Positions 40,190-43,100 of a stretch of 64,000 nucleotides of DNA are shown here, piece after piece. Source of the DNA: Euglena gracilis (Eukaryota). The notes beneath the pieces are model-generated. The model searched no databases, had not been told where the DNA came from, and saw only the letters and a list, made by a program, of their open reading frames with translations. The stretch spans positions 22,208,954 through 22,272,953 of the forward strand of contig CP154954.1 of the NCBI GenBank assembly GCA_039621445.1, read 5' to 3'. Position numbers and translations under genes: made by a program. The stretch's first letter is position 1, and the number at the start of each line of letters is the position of its first letter.

Positions 40190-43100
40190 TTAGAACACCG
40201 ACGAGGCGTTTGTGCAGATGGGCAACTGCCGTGTCTGGTGCAAAAATACCACGCCCACCGCACAATTGCTCCGCCTGCTCCACGCCACGCCCGACACACC
40301 CGGGGGTGGGGCCGGAACGGGGGGCCCCGACTCCCGCCGTCGGTGGCTTTGCCCGGGGACCACCATGGGCAGTGGCAGCGGGGTGGCGGCGTACTCCGCC
40401 GCCGCCGTCGCCGGTGGCGGTCCAGTGGGCTCGAAGAGGGCGGGCTCTGCCGCGGGGGCGGGGGCGGGGGCGGGGGCGGGGGCAGGGGTTCTTTTTAAGA
40501 CTGGGGGTCCACTCCCTGGGGGACCCACCAACTTTTCCCCAAAAATGGCCAAAAATCGCAGAAAATGCTAAAAATAGCACCTTTTCAAAAATTTTCGGCG
40601 CCTTCGCCGAAAAGTGTATCCCCCGGGACCCCCCCGGGGAGGGGGGGGCTCGGCTGGACCAACCCGCCCAGGGTTGGATGGGAAGCCTTGGGGGGGGGTC
40701 GGACCCCCCCCCCCCCGACACGGAGGGGGGGGGGGGGGGTCGGACCCCCCCTCCTACCTCGAAACTGAGGGGGGCCGAAAATTTTTCGATTTCATGGACG
40801 GGCAAAGGGCCAGAAATCGGGTCGAAAACGGTCAAAAATCCCTGATTTTTCTTTGAAAATAGATCCAAAAATGCTCATTTTTTGAAATTTTTTGAACATT
40901 TTTTTGGGGGGAAAACACCAACACATCAAAAAATGGGCAATATGGCCAAAAGTCAGCAAAAGGGGTGTTTTTGCTCATTTTCCGGCGCACAGCGCCGGAA
41001 GAAAATTTTCTGCTGTTTTTGGGCACCTGTCAAGGAGGGGGGGGGGTGGGGGTCCGGACCCCCCCTCCCAACATTTAGGAGGGGGGGGGGTCCGGACCCC
41101 CCCCCCCTACCACCTTACCCCCCCCAGGGGGGGGGTGGTCGGGACCCCCCCCCCAACCACCTACCTCAATACCGAAGGGCTTCCCATCCAACCCTGAACC
41201 CGCCCCACCCCTCCCTCCCCCTGTCCAAGACTAAAAAAAACCCCTGGGCGGGGGGGCTGCTGCTGTCGGAGGAGGAGAGGGGCTGGACGGGCGGCGGCGG
41301 TGTGGAGGGGCGCAGCGGCGCGCGGGCGGGGGCGAGGACGGGCGCCAGGATCGGGGCGGGCGGGGCAGGGGCGGGGGCGGGGGCCTGGCCGAGCAGGCGC
41401 GCCCAGTCGGGACCAGGGGGCGGCCCAGACCCTCGAGGTCGGGGCAGGGCAGTGGGCGGGCTCCAAACCGTGACACCCTGCGGGACTGGGGAAGGCCATG
41501 CTGGTTGCCCACGCTGAGCCCCTTGGCAACCACCAAATGGCACGGCACACATGAAATCAAAATGCCTTCGACGATGGAATATTTTCACCCGTGTTCATCC
41601 AATCATGGCACATTTTGGCCGCCTCTGGGAATGAGTGGGTAAACCCAACTAATGTGTATACCCCCAGTCCTGAAAAGGAGCTGGACAGCAGACAGATACA
41701 TCTTGAAATGAAAAGGAAAGAGCCCAATAGCTGACAGTTTTGATGCAGCTCGAAAGCTGCTTCTTGGCTCCTTGACTGACCCGATGCATCAATTGAAAAC
41801 ACACCTCTGGGTCGACTCCTTTGAGGCATACAAAAAAAAAACGTCGACTCCAGATTTCAAAATCCTCTTCTACGAAAATACTATCTGCGCCATGTGGGGG
41901 TGTGGTGACCCACAAGACTGAAAATGTGAGATGCATTTTCTTGACTCTTTTGCCCAAGACGGAAAACTCATGGATGACTAAAATTCACTAATGTCGCAGG
42001 CATTAATGTTTGTGTGAGAATAAAATCGAACCACCAACCAAACCACAAAGAACACCTAAAAATCCAAGAACCTGTTTAGGGGATTTGAGTAAGAGACCAT
42101 CTGCCAGCAAAGAAACGCAAGATTTTGACATGAGGTGGTCCGCATTGACGGGGAGGGGATCGAATGTTAGACTGGGGCCGCCCTCTGCCTGGCTGGCGGG
42201 GCGGTGGGGATGGCAGACAGATCGGCCACCCCACCGGGGACAGACCGGCGGCGGCGTCCATCAGGGGCGGTGGAAATGTGAACTGGTGGCAGGGCAGCGT
42301 GGGGGACCCGCTTCACAACACGCACGCACGCACGCACGCACGCACGCACACACACACACACACACACACACACACACACACACACACACACACACACACA
42401 CACACACACACACACACACACACACACACACACACACACACACACACACACACACACACACACACACACACACACACACACAATCACACATGCACATACA
42501 CACATGCACATCAATAGAAACAAAACAAACACATACAACACAAACACACACATACACATACACATACACATACACATACACATACACATACACATACACA
42601 TACACATACACATACACATACACATCCACATCCACATACATGCACATATACATACATGCGCACGTGCACGCACACATAAATAACGCACAAACAGACAGAC
42701 CGACAAACATAAGCAGCACACACGCACGCATACATGCAGGCACGCACAGACACACAGGGGCAATAAAACAATGCATTTCCCAAAACACATCCCAAAGAAG
42801 AACAAGCAAAGATGGTGGAAAACAAGCATTTTCCACTCACGGATTCTTTGACAGAGCCTGGAAGCTTTTGCTCACACATATGCTTGCATGAACTATGTAC
42901 TCGCCGCTTGCATTAAAATGCTCAATGCACTTGTGCATCCCCTTCTGAAAATGAGTGTTTGTTTTCCCTTCAGAAAGAAATATTTGTGGCCGGCCAAAAA
43001 AAGCAAATAAAGATAAAACAAGACAGATTGCAATAAGAATAAATAAGATATTAATAAAAAGGAGAGCAAACATAAAGGAAAACACAACATATGAGACACA

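Follow-up and report, generated by a model that had tools for sequence, protein, structure and literature searches.

A transposon insertion that conforms to the euglenid non-conventional intron code in a WD40-repeat gene of Euglena gracilis

The WD40-repeat gene and its family B insertion

The window analyzed in this study, a 64-kb (64,000 nt) stretch of Euglena gracilis contig CP154954.1, carries a WD40-repeat gene on its minus strand and, upstream of the WD40 exons, a short TIR element on the same strand (Table 1). Seven WD40 repeats are encoded at 33157-39710 (-), essentially one per 126-nt exon with phase-1 GT-AG introns between them, suggesting exon-level tandem duplication. The GT donors of this gene are exactly GTGTG in three of the seven read, and the acceptor tracts are C-rich. 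GTGTG donors and C-rich tracts at cis and trans acceptors typify E. gracilis (PMC11170887).

Table 1. Features of the locus and of related elements in the window (a slash marks a splice junction)
Feature	Position	Strand	Evidence or remark
First WD40 exon (PF00400)	39585..39710	-	RNA; E 1.5e-12
Second WD40 exon (PF00400)	39060..39185	-	RNA; E 1.3e-11
Downstream exon	40300..40477	-	40300-40440 in RNA; 40441-40477 predicted
Predicted non-conventional intron (element + one TSD)	40478..41249	-	Fold and published rules; splicing predicted
Non-autonomous TIR element (MITE, family B)	40483..41246	-	764 nt; CAG...CTG ends
5' TIR	41232..41246	-	Source of CAG at intron +4..+6
3' TIR	40483..40497	-	Source of CTG at intron -8..-6
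8-bp TSD, upstream copy	41247..41254	-	Final 3 nt = predicted intron N3
8-bp TSD, downstream copy	40475..40482	-	nt 1-5 = predicted intron N5; nt 6 (G) opens exon
Upstream exon (53 codons, Pro/Ala/Ser-rich)	41250..41408	-	Predicted; thin RNA cover
Older non-conventional intron candidate, 782 nt	41409..42190	-	AGG-CAG at RNA-defined exon end; 13-bp inverted arm, CTG-N5/G
Next upstream exon	42191..42284	-	X15 contig 14 covers 42191-42286, raw depth ~3; non-conventional-type motifs on both sides
Non-conventional intron candidate, 169 nt, in last WD40 repeat	32905..33073	-	N3-CAG...CTG-N5/G; 8-bp repeat 6/8
Sister copy	2551..2818	+	Exact 8-bp TSD (8/8); apparently within a conventional intron
Sister copy	23940..24187	+	TSD 6/8; non-coding surroundings
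Sister copy	54668..54783	-	Short; TSD 7/8; one end decayed to CTA

The first-pass annotation had described the element as a 764-nt member of a family, designated family B, with an exact 8-bp TSD, and both its boundaries and the two repeats were verified in the sequence. The TSD, CCCCCGCC, is identical on the two sides. Read on the minus strand, the element starts with CAGGGG and ends with CCCCTG, and its TIR arms are complementary at 14 of 15 positions in DNA, while in RNA all positions are paired, one of them as G-U. Since CCCCCGCC is a low-complexity 8-mer with 29 copies within the 64-kb window, the length of the TSD rests mainly on the sister copies. The three that had been listed earlier were found with both ends and with repeats matching as given in Table 1, so all four two-ended copies in the window, the focal one included, show 8-nt repeats of matching register. 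The termini are common to all three sisters, two of which also share a subterminal block of ~200 nt. TSD and codon counts were made by hand on the printed sequence, and a one-ended remnant near 50040-50293 was left out of the count of four. This remnant shows two ends of the family B type that point the same way and may be a nested or truncated copy.

A search with the 16-mer of the TIR (up to 3 mismatches) returned 13 matches in the window against 1.97 expected. In the DNA run X1, the summed contig depth is 1.3e5-6.8e5 on the element versus 34-67 on the unique flanks. This points, roughly, to thousands of related copies, and contigs of this run span both ends of the focal element. The element thus combines TIRs, a TSD, short length, multiple copies and lack of a transposase (judged from its length and low-complexity frames), as a MITE does. 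Of the four two-ended copies in the window, one is exonic; introners are defined by large numbers of nearly identical introns in unrelated exonic sites.

The annotation had called the element hAT-like. The hAT superfamily has 8-bp TSDs and YA...TR-type ends, MITEs of the hAT and P type have ends beginning with CAG, and P elements have CA...TG ends with TSDs of 7-8 bp. The ends and TSD of family B follow the hAT pattern at all four two-ended copies, but not exclusively: these features are the whole basis of the label and fit P too, and the hAT assignment is not established. An 8-bp TSD and ends starting with CAG also characterize hAT/P MITEs such as maize Ds. Splicing of maize Ds is spliceosomal and usually leaves a scar, neither of which applies to the intron model developed below for family B. 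A metagenome scan for the element terminus gave no matches. Non-autonomous elements are classified by their ends and TSD (PMC4455052). The Merlin superfamily was rejected: E. gracilis Merlin families share the 8-bp TSD with family B but have the terminal 5'-GG that this superfamily requires (PMC8101967), whereas the element ends in CA...TG.

Flanking exons and their RNA cover

RNA and DNA cover of 39060-42300 was examined in four of the 24 listed runs, namely the raw RNA runs X21 and X22 (~5% of each read), the probable RNA assembly X15 and the DNA assembly X1. The exon downstream of the element is GT-AG spliced to the first WD40 exon (joint 39709/40299; four reads in X21, one in X22, and contig 9 of X15), and the joint between the first and second WD40 exons is covered by 27 and 12 reads. 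Both flanks had been proposed to be coding. For the 3' flank, RNA bears this out, as it is exonic and in the proposed frame with the WD40 exons; for the 5' flank, where RNA cover is thin, codon bias suggests it. The stretch 41408-41250 is open for 53 codons in the frame set by the WD40 exons, and of the 25 A/T bases in it, two occupy third positions (hand count; binomial p ~0.004), compared with five of 18, without such a bias, in the part of the 3' flank that precedes its Met. Its RNA consists of one X22 read at 41295 and none at 41268, about one on-target read per run, and the depth at 41349-41457 comes mostly from 30-nt matches of other loci. The GC content of the 5' flank is 83-84%, and the DNA depth of X1 halves there too. 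At 41268-41885, X1 contains two haplotypes near the insertion.

The start of the upstream exon had been placed at an in-frame CAG acceptor at 41477. This start was rejected for want of RNA and for its lower GC3: depth at 41458-41566 is 0 in X21, 0 in X15 and 0.06 in X22, and the third position is G or C in 14 of 23 codons in 41477-41409 versus 51 of 53 in 41408-41250 (hand count). A start at 41444 was also rejected, since the partner arm found at 41414-41426 is the longer one and has a purine after it. The probable start of the exon is 41408, with another non-conventional intron in front of it: a CAG at 42187 opens a 13-nt arm that is 92% complementary to 41414-41426, and the latter is followed by five bases and then the G of 41408. 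In this older candidate no TSD relic is present (2/8 match), the centroid structure pairs the ends with a z of -1.0, and its splice joint does not occur among the joints listed for the four runs. The exon at 42191-42284 seems to begin behind CTG-N5/A, its RNA match running two bases into the intron by micro-homology; RNA with a loose end at 42192 was assigned to another locus.

The last WD40 repeat offers a second comparison. Its profile match covers positions 2-28 of 39, ends at a cut, and resumes 169 nt further on with ten residues. The insert starts with GGC-CAG and ends with CTG and five bases, after which a G follows. The 8-mers around the cuts at 33073-32905 match at six of eight positions in the same 5/3 register (~1% by chance, a hand estimate), so that one of the two older intron candidates has kept a TSD-like relic. 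The fold of the insert is unremarkable (z -0.07). Among the non-conventional candidates in the window, this one has the cleanest coding context.

RNA reads at the focal junction are clipped at a tandem repeat (40441-40493), where the X15 contig also ends and depth is ~1 read. Fifteen of the 269 joints were listed, mostly repeat-derived rows from the DNA run, and a joint skipping the element is not among them; because these rows flood the listing, this is no evidence and neither supports nor refutes splicing. A joint of a full-length intron circle is likewise absent from the joints listed, at a depth too low for this to count. RNA reads on the element mostly carry letters of other copies (23/23 at 41155, 7/7 at 41015 and 12/14 at 40812), so retention of the focal copy in transcripts is not apparent, although fixed differences between the window and the runs at 39697, 40361 and 40419 weaken this argument. 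Protein searches for the spliced product gave no matches with the 3' flank and six generic WD40 proteins, none of them the spliced product, with the first WD40 exon. A metagenome scan for the flank and a search of Rfam each gave no matches.

The depth of X21 is 37 and 16 on the WD40 exons versus ~1-4 on the flanks, a profile also compatible with a transcript start near 40445. The WD40 mRNA could then begin downstream of the element, its acceptor being the CAG at 40449-40447 (either trans, for a spliced leader, or conventional) and its start codon the Met near 40365; the element would belong to an outron or separate two transcripts, and an older gene would possibly have been split. This CAG sits behind a C-rich repeat of the kind that typifies E. 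gracilis acceptors (PMC11170887), contig 9 of X15 ends 5 letters past 40440 with a depth of 141 versus 44 for the upstream contig, and seven WD40 repeats could make a protein alone. However, the 5' flank is open and codon-biased and shares its frame with the 3' flank, neither the upstream exon nor the read-through contains a phase-1 GT donor, and the contig break is explained by the GC content of 77-84% together with the tandem repeat. We consider such a downstream start unlikely and favor an insertion into a coding exon.

Fit of the predicted intron to the euglenid splicing code

Together with one TSD copy, the element measures 772 nt, which is not a multiple of 3; this arithmetic and the junction letters agree with the first-pass annotation. 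At the 5' boundary, GCC-CAG at 41249 places CAG (CDG in the rule) exactly 3 nt into the predicted intron, and the 3' boundary at 40485-40477 reads CTG-CCCCC/G, conforming to the CTG-N5/purine rule. In the fold of the 772-nt RNA, CAG(+4) pairs with CTG(-8..-6) within a 15-bp terminal stem, in the MFE and centroid structures alike; outside the stem, 3 nt at the 5' end and 5 nt at the 3' end stay unpaired. The z of this fold is -7.4 against 20 shuffles. Knock-in experiments in E. gracilis established what such introns need (PMC12501133, Nomura et al.): a donor spacer of 3 nt, CAG/CTG, pairing next to them, an acceptor spacer of 5-6 nt and an exon that starts with a purine. The same features sufficed when entirely synthetic 50-nt introns were inserted in this species, and the last base of the upstream exon had no effect on splicing (PMC12501133). 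Older rules for euglenid introns, Y/R at both ends and C at exon +3 (PMC4770533), also hold at the focal junctions. The claim that the element plus TSD has the geometry of a euglenid non-conventional intron is thus confirmed for every tested sequence rule, and the wider claim that the MITE is a newborn intron of this class appears partly supported as far as sequence features go.

Two other routes of removal would also preserve the frame. In one, a long non-conventional intron would run from 42190 to the 3' end of the element and skip 41408-41250; in the other, a cryptic GT-AG pair at 41241-40491 would be used in a Ds-like manner, cutting out 751 nt and adding seven codons. The thin RNA cover of 41250-41408 agrees with either route. 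However, the CAG at 42187 has its match at 41414-41426 (13 nt, 92%) and pairs poorly with the element end, and the GTTTT donor and A-rich acceptor of the cryptic pair are unlike the seven donors of the WD40 gene. Against exon skipping, the X15 depth at 41349-41457 would accommodate ~27 letters of contig 14, which is only suggestive. Removal by one of these routes seems to us doubtful, slightly more so than the downstream start.

Read through in frame, the element brings a stop at 41168-41166, after 27 codons. The insertion might therefore be a recent damaging allele that stays unspliced and whose transcripts are degraded, its match to the code being a by-product of the transposon ends. In E. 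gracilis, transcripts are lost when splicing fails (PMC12501133), and X1 is heterozygous at nearby sites. However, the exons on both sides appear to be expressed, contigs of X1 cross both element ends with no empty-site joint among the joints listed (contigs drop rare variants), and all tested sequence rules hold. This is the least plausible of the alternatives, and we regard it as very improbable.

We therefore favor, as the probable reading, scarless non-conventional splicing of an exonic transposon insertion in the WD40-repeat gene. By its anatomy, a non-autonomous copy from a cut-and-paste family with CAG...CTG termini and an 8-bp TSD inserted at this site, probably a coding exon of this gene, and its TIRs would pair into a stem in the pre-mRNA. 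The euglenid splicing system would then cut 3 nt upstream of CAG and 5 nt downstream of CTG, as has been shown at other E. gracilis introns. As 3 and 5 add up to the 8 bp of the TSD, both cuts would hit the same position of the two duplicates, and one full copy would be lost with the element, restoring the exon without a scar. Because the element ends read alike in both orientations, any exonic insertion with a purine at target base 6 would be a ready-made intron. With age, the TIR may shrink to a CAG/CTG stem while the TSD decays, as the series of 8/8 at the focal element, 6/8 at 33073-32905 and 2/8 at 42190-41409 would suggest. The insertion had been presented as direct evidence for a transposon-born intron. 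It is indeed intact and assignable to a family, but it falls short of direct evidence because excision at the focal junction is predicted from the rules above.

Relation to known introns and other repeats in the window

The focal case resembles known euglenid non-conventional introns in N3-CAG...CTG-N5/R, the terminal stem, Y/R ends, C at exon +3, junction repeats and a length within the reported range (PMC12501133, PMC11170887, PMC3935182, PMC4770533). It differs in that the whole intron, whose splicing is predicted here, is recognizable as belonging to a multi-copy TIR family, carries an exact 8-bp TSD and has sister copies outside exons. A close counterpart is intron 4 of gapC in E. agilis, a strain-specific, young non-conventional intron likewise with an 8-nt direct repeat at its junctions, which was ascribed to double-strand-break repair in 2016 (PMC4770533). 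That intron has an empty-site allele and is not tied to a repeat family in the parts of the paper available, whereas the focal one is assigned to a family and no empty allele is found among the X1 joints listed.

A transposon origin had been said to be suggested in general terms. It was indeed suggested before, but more specifically than that: in 2013, inverted repeats led to the proposal that these introns come from MITEs, at a time when no transposon of euglenids had been identified (PMC3935182), a 2024 review took the idea up again, citing TIRs and TSD-like repeats (PMC11282704), and the 8-nt repeat is on record as well (PMC4770533). The idea has been repeated for diplonemids (PMC12621601), and a 2025 paper still called the origin unresolved (PMC12501133). 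The string "euglen" is absent from the main text of a large introner survey (PMC12130899). Introners of Micromonas and others and the non-canonical transposon-derived introns of Fritillaria and Amoebophrya share with our proposal the conversion of a non-autonomous TIR transposon into an intron minus one TSD copy (PMC11282704). In Micromonas, however, the TSD is 3 nt long and supplies a spliceosomal site (PMC11282704), whereas here the spacing of the paired TIRs would set the cuts, with no GT-AG. In the literature searched (most subscription papers and some supplements lay outside its reach), we found neither a named multi-copy source family of the hAT or P type nor a remark that 3+5=8. What would be new here is an intron born from a transposon and cut by TIR-relative spacing instead of at GT-AG.

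MITEs and break repair are competing ideas on the origin of these introns, and a concrete family together with the 3+5=8 rule makes that origin testable. Young introns should carry repeats of exactly 8 nt in the 5/3 register, a purine at target position 6 should be enriched in exonic but not in intronic copies, and the element ends should lead to the transposase. Non-conventional introns make up 71.8% of the introns of E. agilis (PMC12501133). In its broadest form, our proposal is that the Euglena non-conventional code may be the footprint of a superfamily of CAG-ended transposons with an 8-bp TSD (hAT or P). The 3- and 5-nt spacers would exist to cut both duplicates alike, and the mirrored Y/R and the C at +3 would be TSD by-products; the mirrored junction consensuses, despite the irrelevance of the last upstream exon base, would follow because the spacers sum to the TSD. 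Family B would be a recently or currently active source, and the majority intron class (~72% in E. agilis) would trace back to such elements, with an excision system adapted to them. We hold the chances for and against this generalization to be evenly balanced. If true, it would explain how a genome tolerates thousands of exonic insertions and would hint at what the splicing machinery recognizes.

Several other repeats occur in the window. A near-exact duplication with a spacing of 268 nt lies within a CA microsatellite at 28924-29500 and is possibly an assembly artefact. A few TTAGGG telomere-like units stand between short inverted arms at 56555-56625 (-); they belong to a longer element that also carries tandem 207-nt units (57142-57969) and a GC-rich block of repeats (58274-59560). 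An element at 1021-2104 and 12450-12580 carries arrays of a 10-nt unit, GTCGGCCCTG, shows long terminal inverted similarity and represents another TIR family. A second family with CAGGG...CCCTG TIRs (family C) has two copies on the minus strand, 44290-44691 and 51205-51599, which are 93% identical and apparently intronic; their G-run flanks are uninformative on TSD length, and the copies suggest that several related families exist, with a preference for G-run targets in family C.
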